Below, piece by piece: positions 15,807-52,723 of a stretch of DNA of 64,000 nucleotides. The DNA is from an uncultured bacterium (GTDB lineage: Bacteria > Patescibacteriota > Patescibacteriia > Patescibacteriales > UBA12465), in contig CAJAVM010000003.1 of NCBI GenBank assembly GCA_903945435.1, positions 1,352 through 65,351 of the forward strand, written 5' to 3'. Under the pieces are notes generated by a model. The model worked only from the letters and a program-made list of their open reading frames with translations, did no database searches and was not told the DNA's origin. Made by a program: the position numbers and the translations under genes. Numbering within the stretch: position 1 is the first letter of the stretch; every line of letters begins with the position of its first letter.

Positions 15807-15889
15807 GCCGCGAGAGGGAATCGAACCCTCATGAAGTCGCCCCCACACGAGTTTGAGTCGTGCGCGTCTACCAATTCCGCCACCGCGGC
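15807..15889 (-). tRNA. tRNA-Leu(CAA)
   Basis: The reverse complement reads GCCGCGGTGGCGGAATTGGTAGACGCGCACGACTCAAACTCGTGTGGGGGCGACTTCATGAGGGTTCGATTCCCTCTCGCGGCA. It has a 7 bp acceptor stem, the anticodon loop CUCAAAC (anticodon CAA), a long variable arm and a GGTTCGATTCC T-loop. Confidence 0.8.
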
Positions 15890-36587: not shown

Positions 36588-36661
36588 TCGGGGATCGTCT
36601 AACGGTAGGACAACAGGTTCTGGTCCTGTTTATTGGGGTTCGAATCCCTATCCCCGAGCCA
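36588..36661 (+). tRNA. tRNA-Gln(CUG), CCA encoded
   Basis: TCGGGGATCGTCTAACGGTAGGACAACAGGTTCTGGTCCTGTTTATTGGGGTTCGAATCCCTATCCCCGAGCCA. 7 bp acceptor stem, anticodon loop UUCUGGU (anticodon CUG), T-loop GGTTCGAATCC. Confidence 0.8.
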
Positions 36662-36725
36662 ATACGATTTTGGTGTTTAAGACCGACACAAGGCATTAAA
36701 CGTTAGCCAAAATACAAAGAAGTTC

Positions 36726-36746
36726 AGCTTATACTGAGCTTTTTTG
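36726..36746 (+). terminator. rho-independent terminator downstream of lysS/tRNA-Gln
   Basis: agcuua-uac-ugagcu followed by UUUUUU. Confidence 0.4.
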
Positions 36747-36892
36747 TTGGAGTCAAGTGAGTGTAAACTGGTGTAAATAATGAAAAATATTGGTTCGAAT
36801 ACGAGTTCTGTCAAAATATATTTTATAAAAATGTTTCCGAAAAGTTATTGCTATATTTCAGCCATTTTTAGTATGGGCTGGCTAAGTAAAAC

Positions 36893-37699
36893 ATGCTATT
36901 ATGTCAGTGTAATAATATGCCTAATTTTAATAACTTAGATTTAAAAAATTGGAAAGATTCAGAGATTTGGACTGATAGTCTTTGGATTATTAAAGAACGT
37001 GATAAGTCGGGGAAACACGACGGTTTTTATCATGGCAATTTTGTTCCGCAAATACCTCATCAATTAATTTTAAGATATAGTAAAGAGAATGATGTAGTCT
37101 TTGATCCATTTTTAGGTAGCGGCACAACGGCATATGAATGTGAAACTTTAAAGAGACATTTTGTTGGTATAGAAATTCAACCAACATTAGTTAAACATGT
37201 GCAATCAAAACTCGATAGTAAAAAGAATTTCTTTGAGATTTTAGCGGCTGATAGCACTGAAGAAAAGACTTTTAATAAAATAGAAGAAGCTTTAAAGAAA
37301 CATAAGAGAATAAAAGTTCAATTGGCTATTTTACATCCACCATATGCTAATATTGTTAAGTTCAGTGATAATAAAAACGACTTATCTAACGCTAAAGATT
37401 TAAGACAATTTTTGAATCAATTTTCTAGTGTTGTTAAAAATACTTTGACTATTTTAGAAAAAGGGCGGTATATTGCTATAGTTATGGGCGATAAGTATGA
37501 AAAAGGCCAATGGATACCGTTGGGTTTTTATTGTATGAATGAGGCTTATAAGTTGGGTTTAACGCTAAAAAGCGTTATAATAAAGAATATGGAGGGAAAT
37601 AGGGCTAAGCAAAATAAGGAAGGAATCTGGCGTTACCGAGCTCTAACTAGCGATTATTATATTTTTAAACACGAATATATATTAATTTTCAAATATTAG
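36893..37699 (+). CDS. site-specific DNA methyltransferase (amino-methyltransferase, N6A or N4C)
   Basis: Motif I DPFLGSGTTAYEC...FVGIEI and motif IV ILHPPY. The true start is likely M9 (MPNFNN...). Confidence 0.65.
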   Translation: MLLCQCNNMPNFNNLDLKNWKDSEIWTDSLWIIKERDKSGKHDGFYHGNFVPQIPHQLILRYSKENDVVFDPFLGSGTTAYECETLKRHFVGIEIQPTLVKHVQSKLDSKKNFFEILAADSTEEKTFNKIEEALKKHKRIKVQLAILHPPYANIVKFSDNKNDLSNAKDLRQFLNQFSSVVKNTLTILEKGRYIAIVMGDKYEKGQWIPLGFYCMNEAYKLGLTLKSVIIKNMEGNRAKQNKEGIWRYRALTSDYYIFKHEYILIFKY

Positions 37700-37700
37700 T

Positions 37701-38381
37701 ATGACAAATAATGAATTATTTTTAGAACTTGCGAAGCCAAATAAAGATGGTGTGAGTCGCTGGGTTCCAGTTTCAGAATTTATTGGTAAATATAAAAAAC
37801 TTCAACTTGGAAATGGTGGAAGTTGGTGCCGAGCTAGTTCAAGCTTGGCAAAGAAATACATTGTCGAGTTTGATAAAAATAAAACAGCCGGTAATTCTAT
37901 TGACGGAGTTCGCTTGGCTGGTTTTAATAATAAAAAAATATTAAACCAAAATATTAGAAAAGATATAAAAGATTTTTATAAAGTACAAAACTGTGTGATG
38001 CTTGGGGTTAATGGTAAATCTGAAAATACAAAGATAGAAATAGATCACAAAGATGGTAGAAAAGAGGATCACAGACTTTCAAATTTAAAAGAACAACAAA
38101 TAACTGATTTTCAACCACTTTCAAAAGCGGCAAATGATATTAAAAGGCAAATTTGCAAAAGATGTAAGGAAACTAATAAACGTTGGAATGCAAAAAATAT
38201 TAAGGGTAATCCATTTGATTTTTATGCAGGAAATGAAAATTATTCTGAAGAATTGGGATGTAAAGGATGTTACCAATATGATCCTGTAGAATACAGGAAA
38301 GTTGTTGTTAGAAAAGTTGGTGAATTATCAGCAAAGGAAGCGGTAGATAAGGTTTTTAAAAAATTATACCCAGAAGAATAA
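37701..38381 (+). CDS. putative restriction endonuclease (HNH-like), sandwiched between two methyltransferases
   Basis: The EIDHKDGRKEDHRLSNL segment plus CKRC and CKGC cysteine pairs resemble an HNH/His-Me finger nuclease core. Its position, 1 bp after the MTase stop and 10 bp before the next MTase, supports an R-M role (inference). Confidence 0.35.
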   Translation: MTNNELFLELAKPNKDGVSRWVPVSEFIGKYKKLQLGNGGSWCRASSSLAKKYIVEFDKNKTAGNSIDGVRLAGFNNKKILNQNIRKDIKDFYKVQNCVMLGVNGKSENTKIEIDHKDGRKEDHRLSNLKEQQITDFQPLSKAANDIKRQICKRCKETNKRWNAKNIKGNPFDFYAGNENYSEELGCKGCYQYDPVEYRKVVVRKVGELSAKEAVDKVFKKLYPEE

Positions 38382-38390
38382 CAATAAAAT

Positions 38391-39455
38391 ATGAATTACA
38401 TAGGCAGTAAATTATCGTTGTTAGAGTTTTTAGAAAATTCTATAAAAAAAGTAGCTAAAAAAGACTGCAATGTTTTTTGTGACTTATTTGCTGGCACAGG
38501 TATCGTCGGATCATATTTTAAAAAGAAAGGTTTTAAAATTATAGCTAACGATATCCAGTATTACAGCTACGTTTTGAATAGACATTATATTAAAAATCAT
38601 AAACCACTTGAATTTAAAGGTTTGTTTGAATTGATTGCCACTTTGAAAAGTGAGGACATTAAAAATAGGGGAGCTATTGTTTTAGATTATTTGAATAATT
38701 TAAAAGGCAAAAAGGGATTTATTTACAATAATTATTGTTTGGGTGGGACAAAAAACAAGACTGAGCAAAGACTTTATTTTTCGGATGAAAACGGTTTACG
38801 ATGTGATGCTATAAGACAAAAAATAGAAGAATGGAATAACGGCAAAAAAATTAATGAGAATGAATATTATTTTTTATTAGCCAGCTTAGTTGAATCCATT
38901 GATAAATATGCTAACACAGCTTCTGTCTATGGAGCCTTTTTAAAGAGTCTAAAAAAATCTGCTTTAAGGCCTTTAGTTATGAGCCCTGCCGAATTAATAA
39001 TTAATGACCAAGAGCATGAAGTTTACAACGAAGATATTAATTCGGTTGTTAAAAAAATAAAGGGGGATATTTTATATCTTGATCCGCCATATAACCAAAG
39101 GCAATACGCCACGAATTATCATATATTGGAAACAATCGCTAAATATGATAGCCCTGATATTCATGGTAAAACTGGTTTAAGAGAGTATCAAAAACAGAAA
39201 TCTTCCTATTGTTCAACAAATCAGGTTAAAAAATCTTTTAAAGATTTAATCACTAATGCTGACGTTAAATATATATTTTTAAGTTACAATAATGAAGGAT
39301 TAATGAGTGCAGAAGATATAAAAGAAATAATGAGCACTAGGGGTAAATATGGATTTTTTACTCAGGAATATTCTAGATTTAAAGCAGATAAAAATAGGGA
39401 ATATAAAGCTGAAAAAACAGTAGAATATTTACATTATGTTGTCTGCAATAACTAA
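38391..39455 (+). CDS. Dam-family (D12 class) N6-adenine DNA methyltransferase
   Basis: MNYIGSKLSLL start. Motif I DLFAGTGIVGSYF. Motif IV LDPPYNQ. Confidence 0.8.
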   Translation: MNYIGSKLSLLEFLENSIKKVAKKDCNVFCDLFAGTGIVGSYFKKKGFKIIANDIQYYSYVLNRHYIKNHKPLEFKGLFELIATLKSEDIKNRGAIVLDYLNNLKGKKGFIYNNYCLGGTKNKTEQRLYFSDENGLRCDAIRQKIEEWNNGKKINENEYYFLLASLVESIDKYANTASVYGAFLKSLKKSALRPLVMSPAELIINDQEHEVYNEDINSVVKKIKGDILYLDPPYNQRQYATNYHILETIAKYDSPDIHGKTGLREYQKQKSSYCSTNQVKKSFKDLITNADVKYIFLSYNNEGLMSAEDIKEIMSTRGKYGFFTQEYSRFKADKNREYKAEKTVEYLHYVVCNN

Positions 39456-40074
39456 CCATATCGATTCGATAGCGACTTCAGCCGTGACAGCTGTATTAGT
39501 CTTTTTTATCACTAGTCGTATAGATAATAAGTTAAGAGAAAAAAATAATAAACATGAGTTTATAAGAAATCGTGAGTATGATACCCATGAAAATGTTTAT
39601 GAAGAAATTCAAAAGCTAAAAAATGACCCAGAAACAGGCTGGGCTTTTCGTTCTAGTAAAAAAGAAAAATTAGAAGAGCAAAATAATTTAAGTTTTTCTG
39701 AGTTCTGTAATGTCACCAAGAAAATTGAATTTCATAATTTAAATATTGATGGAGCTGAATCTTATATTTTAGACATTATAAAAGATAAAATTATATCTGA
39801 TATAAAAAAGTTATCTCGTCGTAGTAAAAATAAAATTCAGCAAATTTCTAAGGAAATAATTATTAAATATGAAAATGATTTTGAAGTAATTAATTCCGAG
39901 GTAGATGATTTAGTGGAGGGCTTTGGTTATTATGAAGGTAAAAAATTGTCTTTTGATGAGAGTAATTATGTTAGTTATTGTAAGACGCAAAGAGAAATAG
40001 TTCTATTAAATTATTTAGCTCCATTATTAAATAAACTTGAAATTGAACTTTCTGATTATATTAATTTAAAGTAA
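39436..40074 (+). CDS. hypothetical protein (N-terminal TM helix)
   Basis: 212 aa ORF overlapping the upstream MTase by 20 bp. No motifs recognised. Confidence 0.3.
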   Translation: MLSAITNHIDSIATSAVTAVLVFFITSRIDNKLREKNNKHEFIRNREYDTHENVYEEIQKLKNDPETGWAFRSSKKEKLEEQNNLSFSEFCNVTKKIEFHNLNIDGAESYILDIIKDKIISDIKKLSRRSKNKIQQISKEIIIKYENDFEVINSEVDDLVEGFGYYEGKKLSFDESNYVSYCKTQREIVLLNYLAPLLNKLEIELSDYINLK

Positions 40075-41413
40075 TCTTTTTTTCTCTCATAACCAGTTTA
40101 CTCTCTAAACAGCTTAATACTTCTCGCTTCTCAATAATCGACCCCTCTCTAAGCACGTATTTAGCGTAGTTTCTCATATCAACATCTTTCTGCTTATTAA
40201 AGTCTATTTCAGCTGTTCCGAGCAAGCCTTTACTGAATTTGTAGTATCTTTCAATTTCTTCATTGAATTGGTTTTTTAAGCCGATGTCATTTATATCTAG
40301 CTTATCAATTACTTGAGTTAATTGTTCAATTAATTCTTCTTCTCGAAGATAACCGCCTTTGCAGTTTATATTTTTAGCTCTAGAACATCCGTAATATACA
40401 TATCTTCTAACTGACCCATCGGCCAGTTTTTTAAATTTTTCTTCAGCCGAAATGCCTGATCCGCAATGTCCGCATTTGATAAGCTTGGTAAAGGCAAATT
40501 CCTTACAGTCTTGTCTAGAAATATTACCTCGGCTTAATTGCTCATTCGCTTTCGTATATAACTCTTTTGATATAATCGGATCGTATCCGCCTTTATACCA
40601 TTTATCGCTTCCAACTGGATATTCAAATTCGCCATAGTAGAATGGTTCTTTTATCATCCGCTGAACCATACTGATTGTCATGAACTTATTATTTTTTGTC
40701 CGCAAATCAGTTTCATCTTTTAGCCATCTATATATGCGCCGACAGCTATATTGCTCATTGGCTACTTTTTCAAATAATTGTTTTATTATTGGAGCTCTTT
40801 TAGGATCTATAAATACTTTTTTAGCGCCTTTGTCCGCATATTTATCATGTATGTATCCAATCGGCGCTCGCCCAGGACGCCAACCTTGTTCGCACTTAGC
40901 CCTTAATCCTCGTTTAACATTTTCGCCCTTATGGTCATTTTCTAATTTAGCTTGAGAACCTAGAATCATTAATAAAAATTTTTCATTAGGGCTGTTAGTA
41001 AATCTTTGGCCATGAGTTCTAATTTCTTTAATTAACCCCTGATCCATTAAATCAACCATCGCCCCTAAGTCGCCAGCATTACGGCTTAACCGATCAGGCG
41101 CCCAGCAGAGGATTCCATTAAAGATACCTCTTTTGATATCTGTAATTAATTTATTAAAAACTGGCCTCTGTCCAGAATCTTTAGCGGAATGACTTTCCTT
41201 TCTTACCTCAGTTATTTGAATATTATCCCTTATGGCCATTTCCAGCATTTCCTTTATTTGCGAGTCTATTGAAAGAGCCTGCCTTTCATCTTCTTCGGTT
41301 GATTTTCTGGCGTATAAACAGTATTTCATCTCTGTTTCTAATGCCTCTAAATTAGCCCTATTTTGGCCTCCTAGGGCTGTTTTATGCTCTAGTACCGTAG
41401 TTGCTTGGTTCAT
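40061..41413 (-). CDS. large serine recombinase (resolvase/invertase catalytic domain + recombinase domain + zinc ribbon)
   Basis: N-terminal YARKSTEEDERQALSIDSQ (the catalytic Ser context of the resolvase family). Zinc-ribbon cysteines CGHCGSG...YVYYGC. 450 aa. Confidence 0.85.
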   Translation of the reverse strand: MNQATTVLEHKTALGGQNRANLEALETEMKYCLYARKSTEEDERQALSIDSQIKEMLEMAIRDNIQITEVRKESHSAKDSGQRPVFNKLITDIKRGIFNGILCWAPDRLSRNAGDLGAMVDLMDQGLIKEIRTHGQRFTNSPNEKFLLMILGSQAKLENDHKGENVKRGLRAKCEQGWRPGRAPIGYIHDKYADKGAKKVFIDPKRAPIIKQLFEKVANEQYSCRRIYRWLKDETDLRTKNNKFMTISMVQRMIKEPFYYGEFEYPVGSDKWYKGGYDPIISKELYTKANEQLSRGNISRQDCKEFAFTKLIKCGHCGSGISAEEKFKKLADGSVRRYVYYGCSRAKNINCKGGYLREEELIEQLTQVIDKLDINDIGLKNQFNEEIERYYKFSKGLLGTAEIDFNKQKDVDMRNYAKYVLREGSIIEKREVLSCLESKLVMREKKITLN

Positions 41414-41520
41414 ATGGTTATAGTTGTTATAACCAATTAATGACGCTATTAAACAGGGAAGTCTAGGCCTAGCTGTTGGTAACTTAACTTTACTTTTTGG
41501 CTATTTCAAGTTATATTTTA

Positions 41521-41684
41521 AGTGCAAAACCACAAGTTAATATCGTGAAGCACGCGCCAATTTTTTTGGTAGCCTTGGCTTATTCGTATACAGGAACGGG
41601 CATTCCGACCTAATACGAGTAAGCGTCTTCACGGACACTTCTTGTGGTTTTGCAACCAAGGTCGGGTGTCCGTTTTTGTTTTTA
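41521..41684 (+). other. large imperfect inverted-repeat / candidate structured RNA with alternative terminator hairpin
   Basis: Stem A is gcaaaaccacaag(41523-35)/cttgtggttttgc(41640-52). Stem B is cgtgaag(41543-49)/cttcacg(41626-32). Stem C is gcttattcgta(41577-87)/tacgagtaagc(41613-23) with a U-G pair. The tip hairpin is ggaa-cgggca-ttcc. A competing hairpin cggacac(41631-37)/gtgtccg(41665-71) is followed by tttttgttttt. Confidence 0.3.
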
Positions 41685-41724
41685 TAAAGCGGACATTAGA
41701 TATTTATAAATTAATTATAAATTT

Positions 41725-42030
41725 ATGAAAAAATGTCCGTTTTGCGCCGAAGAAATACAAGACGATGCTAAAAAATGCCGTCATTGCGGAGAATATCTTG
41801 ATAAAGATAATAAAATTAAGGTAAGTAAGCATTCTGATTATGCTACGGTCACAATTATTTCCGCCATATTGCCCGTTATAGGCATTATTTTAGGAATTGT
41901 TTATCTCACTAAAAATAGCAAGGCAGATAAAAAATTAGGCGAACACGCAATTGTTGGCAGTATTTTATTTAGTATATTGTGGTTTCTAATTTTGTTAGTA
42001 TTAGGAATCCCTAATTTTATAGTTATTTAA
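41725..42030 (+). CDS. zinc-ribbon domain membrane protein
   Basis: N-terminal CPFC...CRHC zinc ribbon followed by two TM helices. 101 aa. Confidence 0.55.
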   Translation: MKKCPFCAEEIQDDAKKCRHCGEYLDKDNKIKVSKHSDYATVTIISAILPVIGIILGIVYLTKNSKADKKLGEHAIVGSILFSILWFLILLVLGIPNFIVI

Positions 42031-42066
42031 TATTAGTTTTATTAGCAGTCAGCTAATTATAAATTT

Positions 42067-42477
42067 ATGAAAAAATGTCCATTTTGTGCAGAAGAAATTC
42101 AAGATGACGCAAAAAAATGCCGTCATTGCGGGGAGTATCTTGATAAGGGTAATGTTTCTAATAAAATCAACAAAGACGGTAGATTTGATGGATTCATTGA
42201 TTTCTTAAAACGAAAATATCCCGCTTATTCCGTCGTGTCTGAAAATTATGAAAAAAATTATATAGTGCTTAACAAACAGTTAAGCGGTTTAAATCCTTTG
42301 CTGTTTATTATATTACTTCTTCTTTGGATTCTGCCAGGCGTTATATATCTTATCGTGTCTTTAAGTAGTAAAAAAATATTATCATTGACCATACAATTTA
42401 ATGAAAACAATGAGCCAGTTTCTGTTAGCGACGCGAATTTCAATTTTTTAATTGTTAAATATAAAGAGAATAATTAA
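42067..42477 (+). CDS. zinc-ribbon domain membrane protein (tandem paralog of 41725..42030)
   Basis: The first 27 aa (MKKCPFCAEEIQDDAKKCRHCGEYLDK) are identical to the upstream gene, as are 15 nt of 5' leader. A TM helix follows. Confidence 0.55.
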   Translation: MKKCPFCAEEIQDDAKKCRHCGEYLDKGNVSNKINKDGRFDGFIDFLKRKYPAYSVVSENYEKNYIVLNKQLSGLNPLLFIILLLLWILPGVIYLIVSLSSKKILSLTIQFNENNEPVSVSDANFNFLIVKYKENN

Positions 42478-42488
42478 TAGTGAGTAAT

Positions 42489-43949
42489 TTATCTCATCCC
42501 GTAGTACTCTTTATTGTGTTCCCAAATTCCAAAAGATGCAGGCCTTCTTTTATCTAAAATAATTTCATTTATCAGTAGGGTAAAAGCATCGACGAGATCA
42601 TCGTGTTTTTCTATGCCGAAGCCGACCATTTGACTTATTAATTCTTCAGCGCCATTTTTAGGAAATAGTATTCTTCCTGATTTTATTAAATATGTTGTCA
42701 TACTTAGCCTAGACAATTTATCATATCCGCCAATTTTAACGCCTTTGCTCGGGTACCCATCGCTTTTTAATTGCTGGGTGAAGGCACTTTGATAAGCCAC
42801 TTCTTCAACTAATATTTCTATTGGCTTGCCTCCTCCTATAACACTTGATGATAGTTTAATGTTCTCTATTGCTTCGGGAAATTCCATCCTTTTATTTATT
42901 AAATTGGGCAAAATATAAATTTTCATATCTTTGTCATATCCATACACCCTTGCACTTACCGCCGCCGTATAATCTGCGGTGGTTTTTGTTGATATAGCTA
43001 AATCAACGCCCATTTTTTCATAGCGATAATTATCTGGCGGAAGGGAATCATAGTACTGTAGCCATTCTTCACGGACAACTTGATCTTCGGCTGGTAATAT
43101 CTTCAGCATGAATTCTCGGTTGAAAGTGACCGCATCATAAGTATTTTTTAAATCTTCAATACTCTCATAAGTCGGGTATCTGCTAGGCCAGAGAACAACC
43201 CCATCTTCATTTATAAGCGGGTATGCTTTATAAACACCACCTCTGATTTTATTATCATTTATTTTTGCTTCCAGTCTTTTAATAACTGAGTCTTGGTGTA
43301 AGAGATTTCCAATTACAACAACAACTGTGTTCATATCTCCAGCTGGCAAAACTTCGCCCATTAGCCAATTAAATGATTTATCCCGCCCCTCCTTAGTTTT
43401 AACTGATTGAAGGTCTTCAATATCGTCGACAACAATTAAGTCTGGGCGGTATTGATTGTGTCTGGTTCCTCTAACGCTCTGTTCGACTGAAGCAGTTGCT
43501 ATTCTGGCATTGAATTTTGTCAGCACTAAAGTTTGTGAACCCCATTGATTAGGTTCTTCTTTGAATGGTCCCAGATCGCCTTTAAGTAATTGATTCTTTT
43601 CTAATTCACTCTTTATGCTTTGGAGCATGGTTTGTGCCTTTGCTTGGGTCTGGCTGATAAGAAGAACGTATTTCTTTTCAAGCTTACCCATAATCGCCCA
43701 GAGAGGATAAGAAAGACCCATGATAGTTGATTTGGCTGATCCTCTAAAAGCAACCACAACCATCATCTTATTTTTTGTGTCTTCAGTCAGACTAAACATT
43801 TCTCTTTGAAACATTGCTGTTTCCACTGTCACATAATGATTCATGTAAAGATAGAAAAACCAGTAATGACTTTCCTTAACAGTGGCCAAGCGAACCAGCC
43901 TATCGGTTAACAATTTATTAATTATTTTTTCAGTCGTTAGCTTTTTCAT
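42489..43949 (-). CDS. phage terminase large subunit
   Basis: Walker A-like VAFRGSAKST. Walker B LIVVDDIED. C-terminal RNase-H-like nuclease motifs (EKMGVDLAISTK ... GIEKHDDLVDAF). Confidence 0.7.
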   Translation of the reverse strand: MKKLTTEKIINKLLTDRLVRLATVKESHYWFFYLYMNHYVTVETAMFQREMFSLTEDTKNKMMVVVAFRGSAKSTIMGLSYPLWAIMGKLEKKYVLLISQTQAKAQTMLQSIKSELEKNQLLKGDLGPFKEEPNQWGSQTLVLTKFNARIATASVEQSVRGTRHNQYRPDLIVVDDIEDLQSVKTKEGRDKSFNWLMGEVLPAGDMNTVVVVIGNLLHQDSVIKRLEAKINDNKIRGGVYKAYPLINEDGVVLWPSRYPTYESIEDLKNTYDAVTFNREFMLKILPAEDQVVREEWLQYYDSLPPDNYRYEKMGVDLAISTKTTADYTAAVSARVYGYDKDMKIYILPNLINKRMEFPEAIENIKLSSSVIGGGKPIEILVEEVAYQSAFTQQLKSDGYPSKGVKIGGYDKLSRLSMTTYLIKSGRILFPKNGAEELISQMVGFGIEKHDDLVDAFTLLINEIILDKRRPASFGIWEHNKEYYGMR

Positions 43950-44344
43950 ATATTTTTATCAAGAGCTGCTAGTTTGAGTGCTTGCTTTACGGCTTGTTTC
44001 TGCTCTTTAGTTAATTCAAGAGTATGTTCAATTTTTCCTTTTAACTCCAGTTTGTCAGCATAAACAGGGTGATTATTTCTTAACCAAAAAAAGATAGCTT
44101 GCATGCTTTTATCCTTGATGCCTGATATCAGCTGTGATTCGGCGATGTCATTTATAAATAAGCGCCCCTCAAGGAAAGCTTTATCAACTTGCTCGGAAAA
44201 CTTTTTATCTTCCTTTTTCCAGCGATAGAAGGTTGTTCTGCCAATGCCGTTTTTTTCACAAACCAGCTGGATAATAGGAGTTTTTCTCAAGCCCTCAATT
44301 ATCAGTGCCTTGCCACTATTTTTTGCTTTTGTTTCTTTGTCCAT
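43946..44344 (-). CDS. putative phage terminase small subunit (HTH)
   Basis: 132 aa. HTH segment GIGRTTFYRWKK. It overlaps the terL start by 4 bp. The call rests on position and domain inference. Confidence 0.45.
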   Translation of the reverse strand: MDKETKAKNSGKALIIEGLRKTPIIQLVCEKNGIGRTTFYRWKKEDKKFSEQVDKAFLEGRLFINDIAESQLISGIKDKSMQAIFFWLRNNHPVYADKLELKGKIEHTLELTKEQKQAVKQALKLAALDKNI

Positions 44345-44349
44345 ATTAT

Positions 44350-45201
44350 TTAATTTAATTTTTTAGCTTTTAATCCAGTTAACTTTTCAAATCTTTCTAT
44401 AATTGTCTGGCAATATTCTGGATCTAGTTCTATCATTAAGCATTTTCTTTTTGTTTGTTCGCAACTGAGTAAAGTCGTTCCCGATCCCCCAAAGGGATCA
44501 TATACATAATCACCTATCTTAGAACTGTTTAATATCAGTTGACGCATTAATGATAAAGGTTTTTGCGTAGGATGACTTTTGCTACTACTCGGTTTAGGAC
44601 AGAAGATTACACTCTTGTCTTTTGACTTAGTAAATAGATGTGTGCCGAACCATGAAAAAATTATGAGCTCGTGCTGAGGCAGATAATCTTTGCGCCCAAC
44701 TACGGCCTGATTTTTTACCCAAATTAGAAGTTGTGAAAAATGGATACCTATTTCATCCATTGCTTGTTTTAAAGCAAATAGCATGATGTCGCTATTAAAA
44801 ATGTAGATGGAATTTTTCTTATCCAGAAAGGGAAGTGCTAATGAAAGCCAACTTTTGGTAAATGTTTTATATTCATCATTGCTTTGAATCTGGTCATTAG
44901 CAATTTCTTTTGGCTTACTTAATTTTTGGGCAAATCCCGCTTTTGATTGGCAATACGCGCAACCATATGGTGGGTCGCAAGCAATTAGCCTGATTATGTC
45001 TTGGCCGATAAGTTTTGTAACGCTTTCTTGATCGCAGGCGTCTGAGCACATCAGCCTATGATTTCCCAGCTGATAAATTTCACCTGTCTTAATTAAGTTT
45101 TTTAGCTTTTGTGTTTGCATATTTTTCATAGCGATTAATAATAAGTTGGCAGAAAATTGGATTGATTTCCGCCGTGTAACATATTCTGTTAAGCTGTTCA
45201 C
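44350..45201 (-). CDS. phage-type DNA methyltransferase (beta-class N6A/N4C; DPPY then DPFGGSGTT)
   Basis: Motif IV CDPPYG precedes motif I DPFGGSGTT. The called start is a GTG at 45201 that overlaps the upstream gene by 113 bp. The ATG at 45129 or 45120 is more likely the true start. Confidence 0.7.
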   Translation of the reverse strand: MNSLTEYVTRRKSIQFSANLLLIAMKNMQTQKLKNLIKTGEIYQLGNHRLMCSDACDQESVTKLIGQDIIRLIACDPPYGCAYCQSKAGFAQKLSKPKEIANDQIQSNDEYKTFTKSWLSLALPFLDKKNSIYIFNSDIMLFALKQAMDEIGIHFSQLLIWVKNQAVVGRKDYLPQHELIIFSWFGTHLFTKSKDKSVIFCPKPSSSKSHPTQKPLSLMRQLILNSSKIGDYVYDPFGGSGTTLLSCEQTKRKCLMIELDPEYCQTIIERFEKLTGLKAKKLN

Positions 45202-46363
45202 ACGCTAGAAGAGTCGACCCCGATCCAGCGTAGATGTCTAATATAATATCGCCAGGCTTAGAACAGCGTTTTAAAGGCTTCTCGTGGAGATTTAAAGGTT
45301 TTTGTGCCGAGTGTTCGTAGTTTGATCCAATATCTCTTTTAGCTAGCCAGATATCTAAAATATCAATTATATTATCTATTGCCCTATTGCCTGATTCTAT
45401 TTCTTTGTTTAAAGCTTCACAGGCTTTAGTTGATAGTTTGGATAGGAACGGCTTGCCAGTTTTTCCGTATATACAAAATTCGGTCGCCTTATTAAATGCG
45501 ACATTAGGCGTAGGATTGAACGCACCCTTGAACCAGAAGCAGGCTCTTTCGTTCTTTATGCTTAGTTCTCGGTATAGAGTTTGGATTAACCAGATATTTG
45601 ATTGATCGCACCAAGTGAAGTAATGGCAATTTTCCTTTGCGTGTTTTAAAGAATTTTTTAGTCCAGCTAATAGAAATTTTTTATATTCATCATCGGTTTT
45701 ATTATCTTTAATATCTCCGCCGTAATTTGAACGATTACCGACCCCTTTATCATAATTTAGCCCAATATTAAAAATTGGATCATTATAGATTAGGTCGGCT
45801 TTGTTTTCTCCAAGTAATTTGTCCAGTGTTTCTGTTTTGTGGCTATCTCCACAAATCAAAAAGTGCTTGCCTAGCTGGAAGATGTCACCTAACTTTATGT
45901 CAGTCTTATTTATTTTCTGCAATTCCTTTTCTTCATTAAAATTATCATTCTCAATTTCAATGTCATTATCAAAAACCTGAAGTAAATCATCTTCATTTAA
46001 TCCAGATTCAAGTAAGATATCTAAATCTATTTCCTTGAGAAGCGAATAATTCCATGATCCATGATTAGAGTTGCTTCGAAGTAAATATTCCTTGAATTCT
46101 TTTTCATCTAGCTGACGGTTAGGAACTCTAACGTCTATTTCTTCTTCGCCTCTGTCCAGTAATTGCAAAACACGGATTCTTTGATGGCCAGCTAGAATCT
46201 GACCGCTTATTGTTATGGCAGGTATCTCGGCGAGATTGAATTTTTTAATACTGGCTTTAAGATCACTTAATTGTTTATCCGACATGATGCGCGGATTTTT
46301 TTCGTAGGGAAGCAGGTCGTTGACTTTCCGCTTCTCTGTGTGCCAAATGATTTGTTTGGTCAT
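45089..46363 (-). CDS. ParB-like nuclease domain fused to DNA methyltransferase
   Basis: N-terminal ParB-N motif (ILAGHQRIRVL). C-terminal MTase motifs NDPIF and DIYAGSGSTLLACEQ. The C-terminus is paralogous to the downstream MTase (...NRYEKYANTKAKKLN versus ...ERFEKLTGLKAKKLN). Confidence 0.7.
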   Translation of the reverse strand: MTKQIIWHTEKRKVNDLLPYEKNPRIMSDKQLSDLKASIKKFNLAEIPAITISGQILAGHQRIRVLQLLDRGEEEIDVRVPNRQLDEKEFKEYLLRSNSNHGSWNYSLLKEIDLDILLESGLNEDDLLQVFDNDIEIENDNFNEEKELQKINKTDIKLGDIFQLGKHFLICGDSHKTETLDKLLGENKADLIYNDPIFNIGLNYDKGVGNRSNYGGDIKDNKTDDEYKKFLLAGLKNSLKHAKENCHYFTWCDQSNIWLIQTLYRELSIKNERACFWFKGAFNPTPNVAFNKATEFCIYGKTGKPFLSKLSTKACEALNKEIESGNRAIDNIIDILDIWLAKRDIGSNYEHSAQKPLNLHEKPLKRCSKPGDIILDIYAGSGSTLLACEQLNRICYTAEINPIFCQLIINRYEKYANTKAKKLN

Positions 46364-46487
46364 AATTTTTTTGTTAATAAATTATGTCTTAATTGTATGA
46401 GTTATCTGAGGGGCAGGACATTACACTTTGTGTAAACAAAAAAAATCGCTATTTTTTAGCGATTTTTAGGAACTATTTTGTATTAAA

Positions 46488-47243
46488 TTATAATTTTTTT
46501 AGATTATTTAGAGCATCTTTATACCTTTTTCTATAAATTGCTACCTCACTGTATCCCAAGGCAACTCGGTTTTTACCGTATTTATCGTTTAATTCTTTGG
46601 AAATTTTTTTATCCCCCTTTTTTATTTTAGTTAAATCCCAGGTATCTTTGGCTACGGTTTGAGGCTTCTTAACTTTGTTATTTTTTCCATCTTTTATTAT
46701 CTCGGTTATTTTTTTACATGCCATAGCTATATCTCGGCTGGTTGTGTGAGGAAAAATTTCTAGATATATTTTTCCCGGGGTAAAAGTGTACTTATTTATT
46801 TCTGGGTTTTCGTTAGCAATAATAATTCGTGTTCCAGGAATCTTCTTTCTGGTAAGCCCAGATTTTAGTTTTATTCCTTCTTTTGAAAATTCAGGCAATA
46901 AGTAAGTAATTAGATTTTTATTTATTATATAATCAGCTGTAAAAAATACACAGTTAGAAATTAGATTATTCGGTATTTTAAATTTACTTATTAGTTTTTT
47001 TGAATTCAAAAATAAGATTCTGTGATTCTTGCTATTTGCATGTTCCCAATCAAAAGACAGTTGGTTATTATTAAAGCCTTCTTTTGGAATATTAAGATTG
47101 GTTCTTATCCTCCCAACTTCTTTAATAAAGAAAGGATGGTCTAATAACAAGGAATAAAGCCATGACTCATCTCTAGATAAATCATCTCCGTTTGGAAAAG
47201 TGTATATATTGCTATTTTCTATTTTTTGGTTATTTATACTCAT
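46488..47243 (-). CDS. hypothetical protein (first gene of the leftward MTase/terminase operon)
   Basis: 251 aa ORF with no recognised motifs. Basic C-terminal region. Confidence 0.3.
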   Translation of the reverse strand: MSINNQKIENSNIYTFPNGDDLSRDESWLYSLLLDHPFFIKEVGRIRTNLNIPKEGFNNNQLSFDWEHANSKNHRILFLNSKKLISKFKIPNNLISNCVFFTADYIINKNLITYLLPEFSKEGIKLKSGLTRKKIPGTRIIIANENPEINKYTFTPGKIYLEIFPHTTSRDIAMACKKITEIIKDGKNNKVKKPQTVAKDTWDLTKIKKGDKKISKELNDKYGKNRVALGYSEVAIYRKRYKDALNNLKKL

Positions 47244-47354: not shown

Positions 47355-50231
47355 TTGTTTTTAGGAGTAAAGTCTAAATATAATTATAAAAGAAGCAAAA
47401 ATATGATTCAACAAAAATTTCCAAGAGGCTCGGAGTGGAGAAAATGGGATTTGCACGTGCATACTCCAGCTTCATTTTTTTGGGTAGGAGGCAAAAAATT
47501 AAAGGATTTATCTGATGAAATTAAGGAAGGCCATGTTGAATCAGAAAAAGATGAAGAAATAAAAAAATTCATAAAAGCCGTTAATGAATCGGACGTAGCA
47601 GTTTTTTGTATAATGGATTATTGGACGTTTGATTGGTATATAGAGCTAAAAAAATATTTACTAAGGCACCCAGGAGAATTGAACAAAACCATTTTTCCTG
47701 GTATGGAGTTGCGTGTTGAATGCCCAGTTGACTATAGACTCAATATTCATTTTATTTTGTCAGATAAATTAACTGAACAGAATTTAAATGATTTTAAGTC
47801 AGAATTAATGATAAGATCAGTTAACAGAAAATTGTCGGAGGAGGCCTTAATTGCTTCTGCAAAAATGCTAGACGCCAGTAAGGCTGCGGTGCATGGATAT
47901 GGAGACCCGTCTGTTTTGTCCGATGAAAAGTTATTAGAATTAGGTTCTAAAACGGTAGAAATAACAAAAGATTCTTTAAATACAGCATTAAAAAATATTC
48001 CGCCAGAGTCAGGCTATATTATTTTACCATATGATACCTCCGATGGACTTATTGATTTGGATTGGAAAACTCATCCACACGATGATAATTATTTCATGCA
48101 AACGGCTAGTATTATTGAAACTAGAAAAGCGGATAATGTAGATTTGTTCAATTGTTTGAAAACTGAAGCAAATAAAGATTTTTTTATTAATTTTAGTAAG
48201 ACTATTAAAAATACACCAAAACCATGTGTTTCTGGAAGTGATGCCCATGAGTATAAAAATTATGGAAAATATCCATCTGATAAAATTACATGGGTTAAGG
48301 CTGACCCAACATTTGAAGGTTTAAAACAAATAATATATGAGCCAGTAGATAGGGTTAAAATTCAAGAGTCTAGACCGGAAGAAAAAGATGATTACCAAGT
48401 TATAGATAAAATAAATTTTATAGACAATAAGTTTTTGCCAGACGATATATTAATAAATGAAAACTTAACAACGATTATCGGAGGTAAGTCTACTGGAAAG
48501 TCAGTTTTATTAAGAAATATAGCTAAAACTATTGACCCCGAAGAAGTTAAAACAAGACTTGGAGAGGTTGGCTTATCTGAATACGAAAAAGATGTAGAAG
48601 GATTCAAGGTTATTTGGAAAGATGGGCAGGAAAATGTTAAAAATGAAGATAAAGGAGTTAGAAAAAAAATTATTTATATACCGCAATCATATCTCAACAG
48701 ACTGGTAGATAAAAAAGAAGATAAAACATCTATAGACGAAATAATCAGAAATGTTCTACAACAGGATGATGAGGTAAGCAAAGCATTTGAGGAATTGAAA
48801 GAGTTTGAAAGAAATAATGAAAAAGAAATTTCTAAAAATGTGGATGATCTTTTTTACTCCAAAAAAGATTTTGCTGAACAATCTGAACTTATCAAAAATA
48901 TTGGCGACAAAAGGGGTATTTCTGAACAAATAAAAAGATTAGAGGTAGAAATTAAGGATTTGAAGGAAAAGGCTGGCATGACCCCCGATCAGATTTCTAA
49001 TTATAATTTATTAACGGAGAAAATAGGCAAAATAAAAAAGGAGAAGGAAGTAATTAACAACGATTTAATTTATTTAGATGCATTATCAAAAACAGATCCA
49101 TTCTTATTTATAGACTTTGAAGGGATTTCGTTGGAAATTAAAAATGGAATTTCCACTGATTTTGATAAATTAAAAATGGAATTTATTATTTCATGGCAGG
49201 CTCGTATTAGTGTAAGTGTAGGCAAACTTAACGAGGATTTAATCACAAAGGAATTAGAATTAATATCGGCTACAGATGAGTTAAATCCGTTATTAGAAAA
49301 AGCTAGAGAGAGTCGTGCATTAAATGAAAAAATTTCTAGATTAGATGGCGAAAAAAGTAAACTTAACACAATAGAAAAAGAAGAGTTGAAGCTAGAAAAA
49401 ATTAGACAAAATTATTTTAAATCGTTGTCTAATATGTCCGAATTGCACTTGGAATTTTATAATAAATATTTTGACAGTAGGGCTAAAATATTGAAACAGA
49501 CTATCATAGATGGAGAGATAACTTTTGATTTAAACGTTTCTTTCAGAAGTTTGTATTTTCAGAAAAATATTAATGAAATATTTGACCAAAGAAAATTGTC
49601 TAAATTTACCGATGTTAATATATTAGATTATTCATATTCTGATAATATTAATTTAAAACAGGACATAAGCAAAGTTATTTCTGGAATTTTATCTGAAAAG
49701 TTAGTCTTGAAAAGTGGCTATTCAAAAAAGGATGCAATAAATAAGATGTTACAGAATTGGTTTTCTTTAGATTATGCTATTAAGCAGAATGATGACGATA
49801 TTTCACAGATGTCTCCAGGAAAGAAGTCATTTGTTTTATTGAAATTATTAATAGAGCTTGATAAAAGCAAGTGCCCTATATTGTTAGACCAGCCAGAAGA
49901 CGATTTGGATAACAGATCTATATATAATGATTTAGTTAGGTTTATAAAAGATAAGAAGAAAGGAAGGCAAATTATTATAGCAACGCATAATCCGAATTTG
50001 GTTATTGGTGCGGATGCTGAAAATATTATTGTTGCCAACCAAAGTGGTGAAAAGACCCCAAACAAAACTTTTCAATTTGAGTATGTCACAGGCTCTATTG
50101 AGGATTCTTTTGAAAATAGTGGAGAAACAGCAATTTTATATCAGAAAGGTATTCAAGAACACGCCTGTGATATATTAGAAGGCGGTGAAGATGCCTTTAA
50201 GAAGCGAAAGCGACAATATAGTTTTAATTAA
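47355..50231 (+). CDS. PHP-domain phosphoesterase fused to ABC/Rad50-like (AAA_15/AAA_21-type) coiled-coil ATPase; Ppl-like
   Basis: PHP motifs WDLHVHTP, GMELRV and SGSDAHEY. Walker A IIGGKSTGKS. A coiled-coil of about 250 aa. A signature-like MSPGKKS, Walker B ILLDQPEDD and the H-loop IIATHNP. The called start is TTG at 47355. The ATG at 47403 (MIQQKFPRGSEWRKWDLHVHTP) is more likely the true start. Confidence 0.7.
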   Translation: MFLGVKSKYNYKRSKNMIQQKFPRGSEWRKWDLHVHTPASFFWVGGKKLKDLSDEIKEGHVESEKDEEIKKFIKAVNESDVAVFCIMDYWTFDWYIELKKYLLRHPGELNKTIFPGMELRVECPVDYRLNIHFILSDKLTEQNLNDFKSELMIRSVNRKLSEEALIASAKMLDASKAAVHGYGDPSVLSDEKLLELGSKTVEITKDSLNTALKNIPPESGYIILPYDTSDGLIDLDWKTHPHDDNYFMQTASIIETRKADNVDLFNCLKTEANKDFFINFSKTIKNTPKPCVSGSDAHEYKNYGKYPSDKITWVKADPTFEGLKQIIYEPVDRVKIQESRPEEKDDYQVIDKINFIDNKFLPDDILINENLTTIIGGKSTGKSVLLRNIAKTIDPEEVKTRLGEVGLSEYEKDVEGFKVIWKDGQENVKNEDKGVRKKIIYIPQSYLNRLVDKKEDKTSIDEIIRNVLQQDDEVSKAFEELKEFERNNEKEISKNVDDLFYSKKDFAEQSELIKNIGDKRGISEQIKRLEVEIKDLKEKAGMTPDQISNYNLLTEKIGKIKKEKEVINNDLIYLDALSKTDPFLFIDFEGISLEIKNGISTDFDKLKMEFIISWQARISVSVGKLNEDLITKELELISATDELNPLLEKARESRALNEKISRLDGEKSKLNTIEKEELKLEKIRQNYFKSLSNMSELHLEFYNKYFDSRAKILKQTIIDGEITFDLNVSFRSLYFQKNINEIFDQRKLSKFTDVNILDYSYSDNINLKQDISKVISGILSEKLVLKSGYSKKDAINKMLQNWFSLDYAIKQNDDDISQMSPGKKSFVLLKLLIELDKSKCPILLDQPEDDLDNRSIYNDLVRFIKDKKKGRQIIIATHNPNLVIGADAENIIVANQSGEKTPNKTFQFEYVTGSIEDSFENSGETAILYQKGIQEHACDILEGGEDAFKKRKRQYSFN

Positions 50232-50256
50232 TTTATAAATTGGCAAAATTAATAGT

Positions 50257-51012
50257 ATGTTTAATATTCAAAATATTATAAATTTTATACCAATTGCTGT
50301 AATTATTTCAGCTATTGTTTTTTTAGTAAAATTCTTTGGAAAAGCGAGCACCGATCAGGTTCCGTTTGCTGATAATAGATCTTGGCATGAAGAATTATTT
50401 GGAATTGAATTTTTTGCCACCAGACTTGCATCTCCTTTAATATTCATATTTATTTTATATTCACGTCACTGGAATCCGCTGAAATTTACATCGGATGATT
50501 TATGGCTTTTTATTTTTGGAATTATTTCGGTAGTCATGCTTAACTTAGCTTCAAAAAATGCATTTAAATTTTTTAAAGATGATAACTTTGACGACGGGAA
50601 TCTTTTATCACTTTTAAAAAAGTTATATAAAAATAAAAATGATGAAAAGTTTGAACAAGGAGAAAATTTGTTAATTCTAAAACACCTTGTTTTCCCAGTA
50701 GTCGCTTATTTTATGATGGTGATGCTCATTCTTTTTTATGAATGGGGATCTTATTACCATTTATTAATTGCAATAATTTATTTCTTATTTTTTCTCTTAT
50801 CGTTTGCCCTTTTATTATCATTAAAAAAACGGAATATATTAAAGGCTAATATAAAATTTATCAACAATGAGGAAGAAGAAATAAAAGATTGCAGGGTCTT
50901 AAGGATAAATGAAGATAATATCAAAGTTAAAATTACAAATAATAAAGTTATAATTTTAAATAAGTCCACTGTTTCGAGGATAGAATTTGTTAATAATAAT
51001 TTGGAAAACTAA
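50257..51012 (+). CDS. polytopic membrane protein (4-5 TM) with C-terminal soluble domain
   Basis: Hydrophobic helices (IPIAVIISAIVFLV; LIFIFILY; LWLFIFGIISVVML; VFPVVAYFMMVMLILF; LLIAIIYFLFFLLSFALLL). It starts 25 bp after the PHP-ATPase stop. Confidence 0.45.
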   Translation: MFNIQNIINFIPIAVIISAIVFLVKFFGKASTDQVPFADNRSWHEELFGIEFFATRLASPLIFIFILYSRHWNPLKFTSDDLWLFIFGIISVVMLNLASKNAFKFFKDDNFDDGNLLSLLKKLYKNKNDEKFEQGENLLILKHLVFPVVAYFMMVMLILFYEWGSYYHLLIAIIYFLFFLLSFALLLSLKKRNILKANIKFINNEEEEIKDCRVLRINEDNIKVKITNNKVIILNKSTVSRIEFVNNNLEN

Positions 51013-51571
51013 ATTTATGGGCATAGCTTATAAAAATTTTTGGAGTTTAAATACCGACGAAGCCGTTGTGGCTGGTATTTTAAGAAATGCCACCAGCAAA
51101 GATGTGGAAGTGTTAATGCCGTTAAATGCCCAAATGAAAGGAGTCGATCTTTACCTGTTAAATATTAAGACTAAAAATATTATAACTATTCAAGTAAAGG
51201 GAAGCAGGGCGTATGAACCACAGAAGGCTGAAGTCAAAAAATATGGTGACGGTTCAGGCGGTTGGTTTTTCTTTCCAAAAGAAGTAGTAACTAATGCGAC
51301 AGCAGATTTTTTCTGTTTTTTGATTTACATACTTGAAGAAAACGGAAAAACAGGAAGAAGAATTATTACGCCACATACATTAATGATCCCGACGCAAGTT
51401 TTAAAAGAAAAAAGTTTAAAATATAAAAAAACCCATGGGGATGGCCGCTTTAGTTATAAGATTTGGGTTAACCCATCAGACAAAAAGGCTTTTGATTTTA
51501 GAGATGAAAAAATTGATTTCGATGATTTTTTGGATAAAAAAGGTTTTGCTGTGATTAATAAAGAATTATAA
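50987..51571 (+). CDS. hypothetical protein, possible PD-(D/E)xK (restriction-endonuclease-like) fold
   Basis: E...D...QVK pattern (DVEV ... GVDLYLLN ... IQVKG). The true start is probably the ATG at 51017 (MGIAYKN). Inference only. Confidence 0.3.
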   Translation: MLIIIWKTKFMGIAYKNFWSLNTDEAVVAGILRNATSKDVEVLMPLNAQMKGVDLYLLNIKTKNIITIQVKGSRAYEPQKAEVKKYGDGSGGWFFFPKEVVTNATADFFCFLIYILEENGKTGRRIITPHTLMIPTQVLKEKSLKYKKTHGDGRFSYKIWVNPSDKKAFDFRDEKIDFDDFLDKKGFAVINKEL

Positions 51572-51585
51572 ATATTTTTCTTGGT

Positions 51586-52719: not shown

Positions 52720-52723
52720 AAAA

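Follow-up and report, generated by a model that had tools for sequence, protein, structure and literature searches.

We report that the 311-bp non-coding gap at positions 41414-41724 of a 64,000-nucleotide stretch from an uncultured Patescibacteria bacterium (contig CAJAVM010000003.1, GC content 33%; the whole stretch is called the window below and its positions are used throughout) contains a conserved structured RNA gene of about 160 nt on the plus strand (41520-41683). The gap is an internal control region of one integrative island, neither its edge nor a seam within it. It follows the gene of a large serine recombinase (LSR; 40061-41413, minus strand), as described in an earlier note made from the DNA letters. 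That note read the gap as a possible junction of two tandem elements or as an attachment (att) site of the recombinase, and held in reserve that the recombinase serves the whole island and that the gap is regulatory. It is this second proposal that fits, the gap being made of putative divergent promoters and of the RNA gene. For the original recombinase-junction question the outcome is deflationary, and the interest lies in the RNA, which is a divergent relative of the LOOT RNAs (RF03000) having a second architecture missed by current models, and which is coupled most tightly to the gene behind it.

Loci related to the window (designated by L and a number) were fetched by two recombinase scans, which yielded 55 genome and 2 viral loci (57 in total). 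Upstream of the LSR, the segment 41473-41685 is conserved at 70-79% DNA identity in 12 genome loci. In the alignment of relatives the -35 (TTTAC) and -10 (TATATT) elements are invariant, the stems vary, and the loop ACAGGAACGGRCAYUCCGACC and the 3' end AGGUCGGGUGUCCGUUUUUG are invariant. Scans for the loop motif added 46 metagenome and 2 viral loci, and cmsearch with a covariance model of the element, R1, gave 60 matches (58 distinct sequences). The parts of the RNA in the window are the following:

41520-41683, plus strand: structured RNA of type 1, LOOT-related (covariance model R1, 175 bits)
41523-41537 / 41640-41654, plus strand: helix P1, 15 bp
41544-41550 / 41627-41633, plus strand: helix P2, 7 bp
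about 41552-41573, plus strand: variable side hairpin, from the covariance alignment
41578-41589 / 41613-41624, plus strand: helix P3, 12 pairs
41590-41610 with 41660-41679, plus strand: invariant P3 loop pairing with the 3' tail, then a U-tract

The gap folds at -86.8 kcal/mol, against -53.5 +/- 4.7 kcal/mol for dinucleotide shuffles (z = -7.1, none of 200 being as good). The long multi-stem inverted repeat noticed previously is indeed present, with 14-nt perfect arms at 41523-41536 and 41641-41654, within P1, and 12-nt arms at 41578-41589 and 41613-41624, which are those of P3. Among the 58 distinct sequences, 97.5% of the cells pair and compensatory changes are found in 13 of the 15 pairs of P1, 5 of the 7 pairs of P2 and all 12 pairs of P3. 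Compensatory changes affect 31 of 45 pairs overall; no shuffle out of 500 reached the observed values, and slid controls were far off too. At one position of P3 the most frequent pair is U-G; taken with the promoter and the U-tract, this assigns the RNA to the plus strand, so that it diverges from the LSR. There is thus a conserved structured RNA gene at 41520-41683, whose promoter and ends are those we infer from the aligned sequences.

The loop 41590-41610 and the tail 41660-41679, including the U-tract, can form 20 bp with one bulge (-29.7 kcal/mol). In the type-1 RNAs this loop-tail helix has 99% of its cells paired over the 58 sequences, both partners being near-invariant. The sole variable loop positions, R and Y, oppose U and G of the tail so that pairing is always kept, and L003 carries a C>U / G>A double change in the helix. 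A scan of the whole window with Rfam at the gathering threshold, and of 41300-41800 at E <= 10, gave no meaningful match of the element to a known RNA family. The matches to RUF4, to miRNA and to other Rfam families in the window were rejected as chance.

The LOOT motif was first described by Weinberg et al. in 2017 (PMC5737381), and the Rfam 14 paper places it among the 'metagenomic-based RNAs' (PMC7779021). In the literature searched we found nothing on a function or a genomic context for LOOT, and nothing relevant on serine-integrase islands of Patescibacteria. Upstream of the more distant LSRs of our collection stands a different-looking RNA with the same promoter block, which Rfam recognises as LOOT. 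Its score is 65.4 bits in L018, against an Rfam gathering score of 46.4, and the gathering score is reached or exceeded in 18 of the 18 distant-LSR loci scanned (57.9-86.7 bits). The LOOT-type RNAs (L018, L023 and L057) exhibit a hairpin of the CCUAAC/UAUGG 11-nt receptor type, two GAAA/GNRA hairpins and a long central hairpin. Their tail, located outside the Rfam model, pairs with the central loop with compensatory changes in 14 of 16 pairs, in an alignment fitted to the model for which slid controls were far lower.

An earlier regular-expression search for the loop and the tail in distant loci was too strict, and covariance models were used instead. The model R2, made of LOOT plus the tail, matches 22 loci. 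It also matches type-1 RNAs weakly (27.8 and 25.4 bits in a 0.88-Mb search) and aligns the loop and the tail of the window RNA (14.7 bits, E = 9e-4 in 401 nt). In L027 and L043, a type-1 outer helix is combined with a LOOT-like loop. LOOT and the window RNA have in common their slot in homologous islands, an upstream promoter and repeat block and a same-strand cargo open reading frame (ORF) behind them. In both, the 3' tail (GGUYCGGGNGNCC), which runs into a U-tract, is paired with the loop of a long central hairpin (...ACGG-N4-CCGACC...). Unlike LOOT, the window RNA has its central hairpin enclosed by P1 (15 bp), P2 (7 bp) and a variable side hairpin. The segment 41300-41800 gave no match to the Rfam LOOT model even at E <= 10, and no GAAA-tetraloop hairpin or CCUAAC/UAUGG receptor was seen in the window RNA or in the type-1 alignments by inspection, which was not a dedicated motif search. 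Since the window RNA fails the LOOT model but has the loop-tail core, we call it a structural variant related to LOOT and not a member of the family in the Rfam sense.

The gene following the RNA was surveyed for 72 RNAs (50 of type 1 and 22 of LOOT type). In about 68 of them an ORF on the same strand starts 12-77 nt past the U-tract, and these ORFs are mutually unrelated. Many are small and have 1-3 predicted membrane segments (zinc-ribbon-transmembrane, DUF4190/DUF4064-like, FxsA-like), others coding for nucleases or larger defence-like proteins. The distance between the RNA and the LSR ranges from 0.1 to 7 kb, the intervening cargo being co-oriented with the RNA. L027 has the RNA-plus-cargo unit flipped with respect to the LSR and still intact, and in L081, L095, L099 and L117 it lies among defence-like genes, with no LSR homolog within 4-12 kb on the usual LSR side. 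Because the adjacency of RNA and cargo is kept despite inversion, a varying distance to the LSR and units devoid of LSR, we conclude that the RNA is tied chiefly to its downstream gene. As a conserved structured element located directly upstream of an ORF and co-oriented with it, the RNA has the arrangement of a cis-acting leader. In some islands LOOT is found upstream of the methyltransferase (MTase)-terminase operon instead. Behind the RNA of the window we find:

41725-42477, plus strand: cargo genes behind the RNA, a pair coding for small zinc-ribbon membrane proteins, at 41725-42030 and 42067-42477 (Pfam; about two predicted transmembrane segments)
41686-41743, plus strand: candidate start-codon-sequestering hairpin, in which the post-terminator segment GCGGACATT (41689-41697) could pair with AATGTCCGT (41732-41740), around the translation start of the first cargo ORF (inverted-repeat search)

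The predicted duplex between 41689-41697 and 41732-41740 amounts to -16.8 kcal/mol (z = -5.0), and the hairpin is present in the minimum free energy fold. The RNA loop is itself complementary over 10 nt to the same cargo start site (-14.8 kcal/mol, z = -4). Complementarity between RNA and start codon was rejected as a general rule, being strong only in the zinc-ribbon and 'MSEQ' cargo classes. The zinc-ribbon gene pair results from a tandem duplication (41712-41811 / 42054-42153: 100 nt, 89% identity, covering the leader and the first 29 codons) and exists as a single copy in L090. In many loci, cargo genes that are unrelated to each other have an AT-rich palindromic motif, TATAAATTAAT / TAATAATTAATTA (window 41700-41722 for example), 10-25 nt before their start codon, and the U-tract of the RNA contains a conserved TTG. 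The AT-rich motif and the TTG might together correspond to a second promoter or to a shared translation leader.

Between the LSR and the RNA, the gap comprises the following features, among which the two promoters and the regulator block are inferred from conserved sequence:

41415-41435, no strand: 8-bp perfect palindrome TGGTTATA-N5-TATAACCA, located after the putative -10 element of the LSR promoter and before the LSR start codon, a candidate operator or 5'-untranslated-region hairpin (repeat search)
41437-41465, minus strand: inferred LSR promoter, -10 CATTAA at 41437-41442 and -35 TAGACT at 41460-41465, 17-nt spacer (conserved blocks)
41473-41483, no strand: CTGTTGGTAAC, a direct-repeat block in single copy, flanked by the -35 elements of the two divergent promoters, a candidate regulator binding site (alignments of relatives)
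41489-41517, plus strand: putative RNA promoter, -35 TTTACT and -10 TATATT, 17-nt spacer (promoter scan)

The 8-bp inverted repeat at the gene start, already pointed out in the earlier note, has its arms at 41415-41422 and 41428-41435, and its GGTTA...TAACC repeat is partly retained in relatives. Almost every LSR homolog, even at a protein identity of about 55%, is preceded by two conserved blocks, AATGACRC and AGTCYAG. Read in the direction of the LSR gene, these give TRGACT and CATTAAT separated by 17 nt, a putative promoter that the consensus promoter scan missed. The hexamers of the RNA promoter are invariant in 13 of 13 aligned relatives, with a variable spacer, and are conserved in most of 50 loci. 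The direct-repeat block, GTAGRYAA-N3-GTWGGTAAC, is present twice in most relatives and once in the window, and accompanies the RNA promoter even where cargo parts the RNA from the LSR. In the window, GGTAAC-N5-TTTAC forms only a weak dyad, the block itself consisting of direct repeats one helical turn apart. In L003, a duplication of about 65 bp comprising the repeat block and the RNA promoter brackets the gene of a membrane-anchored SNase (thermonuclease; L003:8813-9925, minus strand).

We considered GGTAAC(TT) as an att half-site, conservation stopping there, and rejected it: the flanking blocks fit the -35 and -10 elements of the LSR, the block recurs far from the LSR, and synteny continues. 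No boundary of the kind expected for a serine-integrase att site is seen at 41414-41724, homology running through both flanks across loci.

The other components of the island are listed below:

36588-36661, plus strand: tRNA-Gln(CTG), LSR-side island boundary at its 3' end and presumed integration target (ARAGORN, Rfam)
36662-36816, plus strand: island-end block after the CCA end of the tRNA, GGTGTTTAAGACCGACA, a terminator-like hairpin and TTTTGTTnnAGTCAA, candidate P' arm and terminal island sequence (blastn, alignment)
36893-40074, plus strand: restriction-modification (R-M) cargo, with an N6_N4 MTase, an IceA/NlaIII-like endonuclease, a Dam-type MTase and a 212-aa ORF without known family (Pfam)
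40061-41413, minus strand: LSR, integrase, 450 aa (Pfam, PHROG, catalytic motifs)
42489-47243, minus strand: phage-derived core, with a 251-aa ORF without known family, ParB-MTase, MTase, terS-like helix-turn-helix (HTH) protein and terL (Pfam, PHROGs, synteny)
47355-53716, plus strand: variable defence-like operon of 5 genes (PADLOC and other family matches)
53825-54034, minus strand: HTH_17/excisionase-family small ORF near the far island end, candidate directionality factor or regulator (precomputed Pfam HTH_17; PHROG excisionase/HTH matches)

Of the 57 loci, at least 29 have a terS homolog upstream of the LSR and on its strand, as detected by tblastn with the window proteins, usually beside MTase homologs. 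The same order of LSR, terS and MTase was found in further contigs, using precomputed gene calls and Pfam assignments around exact or close homologs, and in the metagenome loci. The recurring layout, read on the LSR strand, is: small ORF, ParB-MTase, MTase, terS-like HTH, terL (sometimes truncated or absent), then LSR, with at least one opposite-strand gene between terS/terL and the LSR. The order ParB-MTase, MTase, terS, (terL), RNA, LSR is kept as a unit in dozens of Patescibacteria loci. As both sides of the gap are syntenic in dozens of loci, we conclude that they belong to a single element and not to two.

The proposal of two tandem elements joined at 41414-41724 does not survive this comparison. 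In the related islands the two supposed halves are found together and in the same order, and the tRNA end with its island-end block is distal to the LSR, an arrangement that the note itself had named as speaking against its proposal. The idea of an att site in the gap meets the same synteny of both flanks, and what relatives conserve there is an RNA gene. A left unit made of the LSR and the R-M genes also had to be abandoned. L090, whose core is nearly identical (98% and 99% protein identity to the window for LSR and terL, by tblastn), carries different genes directly past the LSR stop, where DNA homology to the window ends at position 40075. From this end of homology the R-M cassette appears as swappable cargo. 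The distances on which the tandem proposal was built are themselves exact: the LSR stop is 3.4 kb from tRNA-Gln(CTG) (36588-36661), and the 3' end of the gene overlaps the convergent ORF 39436-40074 by 14 bp (40061-40074). The LSR looks mid-island only because cargo has gathered between it and the tRNA end.

L003, L004, L006, L009, L019, L020, L027 and L043 likewise have a tRNA-Gln beyond the 3' end of the LSR gene, oriented to it as in the window. The island-end block, of about 155 nt, recurs in other islands 1.3-9 kb away from the LSR (blastn and alignment) and, in L063, L064 and L005, also follows the 3' exon of a different, group-I-intron-containing tRNA. Within the window, no second copy of the tRNA 3' end was found, and the comparison of 36.56-36.9 kb with 53.7-54.4 kb gave only 7-10-nt chance matches, so that attR was not located by repeats. 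GGTGTTTAAGACCGACA and the operator block each occur once. A look-up of the exact protein of the right-flank deacetylase, aimed at an empty site, gave island-bearing contexts only.

Several observations concern the island ends of relatives. Rfam detects a group I intron (RF00028) at L063:16813-17132 (minus strand, 94.9 bits) and at L039:10184-10505 (minus strand, 70.2 bits). The L063 intron is inside a tRNA gene abutting the island end, and such tRNAs are missed by ARAGORN. In L063, L064 and L005, only the tRNA 3' exon (T-arm and GAGCCA) is recognisable beside the island-end block; a tmRNA end was considered for this tRNA-like fragment and excluded, Rfam showing a group I intron. L005 contains the island-end block twice (16915-17083 and 18394-18558, 1.3 kb apart), and a degenerate T-loop fragment and GTGTTTTAAGACCGAC stand before the inner copy. 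The same tRNA site seems to have received more than one integration, in tandem or in succession, and the arrangement might reveal the crossover point. The contig IMGVR_UViG_3300042286_000458 (32.5 kb, classed viral by IMG/VR) encodes two complete LSR - RNA - terS - MTase modules (L072 and L073). Tandem islands of this family do occur in that contig, and not in the window.

The LSR matches the Pfam domains Resolvase (PF00239, E = 3.9e-21), Recombinase (PF07508, E = 1.1e-14) and Zn_ribbon_recom (PF13408, E = 8.1e-09), and the PHROG 'integrase' phrog_95 (E = 1.6e-64). With the motifs YARKST (Ser38) and DRLSR, it appears catalytically intact by motif content. No second recombinase was found in the island; no tyrosine integrase was detected among the unassigned ORFs of the window, including the 330-aa ORF beside the HTH_17 gene, even at E <= 1. 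Close homologs of the LSR in metagenomes number hundreds. The informative labels of metagenome-assembled genomes (MAGs) for LSR-related loci are Patescibacteria/Candidate Phyla Radiation (Falkowbacteria, Paceibacterota, Saccharibacteria, Magasanikbacteria, Kuenenbacteria and others). The record titles of L001, L003, L009, L010 and others read 'uncultured Gammaproteobacteria', Muribaculaceae, Rhizobiaceae etc. despite a Patescibacteria-type island, which looks like mis-binning or placeholder taxonomy.

Both sides of the core carry exchangeable genes. The IceA/NlaIII-like endonuclease of the window (PF05315, E = 1.7e-119) has an MTase on each side (N6_N4 and Dam-type), the R-M genes of the window being of type II. 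Elsewhere, the slot between the LSR and the tRNA is occupied by a type I R-M system (L063), by MTases (L064) or by type IIG/IIS genes (P0113 contig). L091 keeps both R-M MTases (88% and 79% DNA identity), and no DNA match to the window endonuclease gene was found between them. On the far side, the operon 47355-53716 encodes a 958-aa SMC/ABC-type ATPase (partial matches to Ppl and HEC-01A in PADLOC), a HEPN/PDC-M34B-like protein and three ORFs without family, and matches no complete known defence system. RelA_SpoT, AIPR and TIR proteins take its position in relatives. Homologs of 50257-51012 and 50987-51571 recur singly in the islands L003, L007, L010, L040, L072 and L086. Between the LSR and the RNA of L110 (L110:590-5318), a 152-aa ORF resembles by reading alone an IS200/IS605-type TnpA ('...HLVWTPKFR...') and looks like an insertion sequence nested in the cargo slot. 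Ordinary host genes of the window include the bacterial RNase P class A RNA (10137-10526, 205.8 bits) and a tRNA-Leu(CAA) at 15805-15889.

The explanation we favour, at even odds in our judgement, is a cis-acting RNA: a leader with a built-in terminator would hold down expression of the downstream cargo, assisted in the window by a second hairpin masking the start codon. The mechanism we have in mind is speculative as to cis gating, to the signal and to the role of the effector. An invariant sigma70-like promoter, about 25 bp from the LSR promoter across the repeat block, would transcribe an RNA of about 160 nt rightward. The RNA would fold as a three-helix rod (P1, P2 and P3) with a side hairpin, and the loop-tail helix running into the U-tract would stop transcription and tuck in the 3' end. 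Most transcripts would end at the U-tract, read-through and the second hairpin over the cargo start setting the cargo output. The cargo product, usually a small membrane protein and by guess an exclusion or abortive-infection effector, would be kept low until a signal changes the fold. That LOOT-family RNAs in general, including those of type 1, are cis-acting conditional terminators, sensors gating a swappable exclusion or abortive-infection slot in Patescibacteria serine-recombinase islands, is a more tentative proposal, which we would rather expect to fail than to hold.

A number of points weigh against the leader proposal. In L003, the LSR-proximal copy of the promoter would drive the SNase gene directly, with no RNA in between. 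The complementarity of the RNA and of the post-terminator segment to cargo starts is strong in two cargo classes only. The cargo ORFs might have a promoter of their own (U-tract TTG and TATAAA-like motif), in which case adjacency would be a by-product of a recombination hotspot. The two nested folds, rod (-65.2 kcal/mol) and loop-tail (-55.0 kcal/mol), are mutually exclusive and both conserved, the rod being more stable by about 10 kcal/mol; a three-way junction at the side hairpin could let them coexist as a pseudoknot. Promoters, ends and termination of the RNA were read from nucleotide sequence, Rfam files LOOT as a trans-acting small RNA (sRNA) gene, and at the level of the island neither attR, by repeat comparison, nor an empty site, by the deacetylase look-up, came to light.

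A free-standing sRNA, acting in trans by base pairing or through a protein on the life cycle of the island (excision, packaging genes, immunity to a helper phage), with the cargo as merely the next gene, is a possibility we take seriously while doubting it. The CI/C4 RNAs of P4, P1 and P7 are a precedent for such trans-acting RNAs. An own invariant promoter, a U-tract end, a compact fold with a paired 3' end and a tight link to the island core (LOOT in 18 of 18 loci) would all suit it, as would the GAAA tetraloop and 11-nt receptor of the LOOT-type copies, which are typical of stable independent RNAs, and the 10-nt complementarity of the loop to the start region of the zinc-ribbon mRNA. Yet such an sRNA does not call for what is seen in about 68 of 72 cases, an ORF on the same strand 12-77 nt further on, nor for the joint movement of RNA and cargo. 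No conserved target was found either, the complementarity to cargo starts being class-specific. A role for the RNA as cofactor of the LSR, controlling its direction or its choice of target, is very unlikely, since RNA-plus-cargo units occur with no LSR homolog in the examined flanks. A role in DNA packaging, as a pac-type DNA signal or as a terminase-linked packaging RNA loosely like the phi29 pRNA, strikes us as extremely unlikely. The RNA is usually 0.5-1.5 kb from terS/terL or directly upstream of the MTase-terminase operon, but many RNA-bearing islands have no terL, RNA-plus-cargo units exist with no terminase genes nearby, and there is no similarity to pRNA or to another Rfam family.

The remaining alternatives treat the gap as a DNA recombination site. 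Serine integrases usually adjoin attP, and a junction of tandem elements or an att site at 41414-41724, with the inverted repeats as recombination signals, could also draw on conservation ending after GGTAAC(TT) upstream of the LSR in many RNA-less relatives, on the duplication of the repeat-plus-promoter block around a cargo gene in L003, and on tandem islands elsewhere (two modules in one IMG/VR contig, two att-like copies in L005). This explanation is nevertheless largely refuted by the synteny of both sides in dozens of loci, and we give it next to no credence. Covarying stems, invariant loops, U-G pairs, a promoter and a U-tract together mark an RNA and not a protein-bound DNA site, and the LOOT-type copies contain RNA tertiary motifs. 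The blocks adjacent to the LSR fit -35 and -10 elements with 17-nt spacing, the island-end block sits at the tRNA, and the R-M cargo swaps independently of the LSR. The LSR could otherwise be a local cassette-capturing recombinase with GTAGRYAA-N3-GTWGGTAAC as its capture site, in an integron-like layout with a serine recombinase, which we regard as very unlikely. The divergent integrase and cargo promoters do abut the repeat block, all cargo between LSR and RNA points away from the LSR, the block and the promoter stand on both sides of the inserted SNase gene in L003, and a similar terminator hairpin (AACGAG...CTCGTTTTTT) followed by the block is found in about 9-10 of the listed loci. However, the duplication of about 65 bp spans the whole promoter, in keeping with homologous exchange among related islands. 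Direct repeats spaced by one helical turn before a -35 element are typical of a regulator site, unlike the dyad-symmetric sites of serine integrases, and no cassette-borne partner site was seen, the block being present once in the window.

With these results LOOT, an orphan family since 2017, gains a host group, Patescibacteria, judged from the MAG labels of related loci. It also gains a genomic home, a tRNA-integrating island with a serine recombinase, phage MTases, terS/terL and defence cargo on both sides, and a near-constant relation, the RNA lying 5' of a variable gene that mostly encodes a small membrane protein (about 68 of 72). The second RNA architecture implies that the LOOT family is under-counted by current models. 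If LOOT-type RNAs were conditional terminators acting in cis, an orphan RNA class would be given a function and a new kind of RNA-controlled defence-cargo module would be defined. The function of LOOT becomes directly testable, and the RNA can serve as a marker for cargo hotspots in genomes that are hard to annotate.

The LSR shares with the large serine integrases of temperate phages and mobile elements (TP901-1 Int, SPbeta SprA/YokA, A118, Bxb1, phiC31) the three-domain plan, the catalytic Ser and the DRLSR motif. As with those enzymes, it is the sole recombinase of an integrated element with a small HTH 'excisionase-family' gene at the opposite end. Its similarity to them is distant only: the nearest solved structures are those of the TP901-1 integrase catalytic domain and of the SPbeta integrase (E of about 1e-6). 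In contrast with known serine integrases, a variable cargo slot separates its gene from the island end and no att site abuts it, and its apparent target, a tRNA 3' end, is commoner for tyrosine integrases.

The island as a whole resembles phage satellites of the phage-inducible chromosomal island (PICI) type and the P2/P4 hotspots in possessing an integrase and terS (sometimes terL) but no capsid or tail genes. By this gene content, which fits a PICI-like satellite, and with terL often lost and terS kept in relatives, it may be a phage satellite. The P2/P4-type defence hotspots, reportedly the subject of Rousset et al. in 2022, share with the island family a conserved core flanking slots with strain-variable R-M, abortive-infection and other defence genes. 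The window island differs from PICI-like elements by its Patescibacteria host, its serine recombinase, and two phage-type MTases and a LOOT-family RNA in the core. Integrons (intI, Pc, attI, cassettes) likewise have a recombinase gene divergent from a promoter reading into variable co-oriented genes, whereas the recombinase of the window is a serine and not a tyrosine enzyme, no attC-like sites were seen, and the structured element is an RNA with its own putative promoter and terminator.

A parallel for the RNA itself would be provided by attenuating leaders, such as riboswitch expression platforms, the lambda PR'-tR' leader read through under Q and the P4 CI RNA system. The succession of a promoter that looks constitutive, a conserved structured leader, a U-tract terminator overlapping its conserved core and a regulated gene is the one predicted in the window, and in both a second hairpin would cover the start codon. 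The window RNA differs from these leaders in that the genes downstream of it and its relatives are mutually unrelated, and in that its putative terminator helix is formed with a distant loop instead of a local hairpin.

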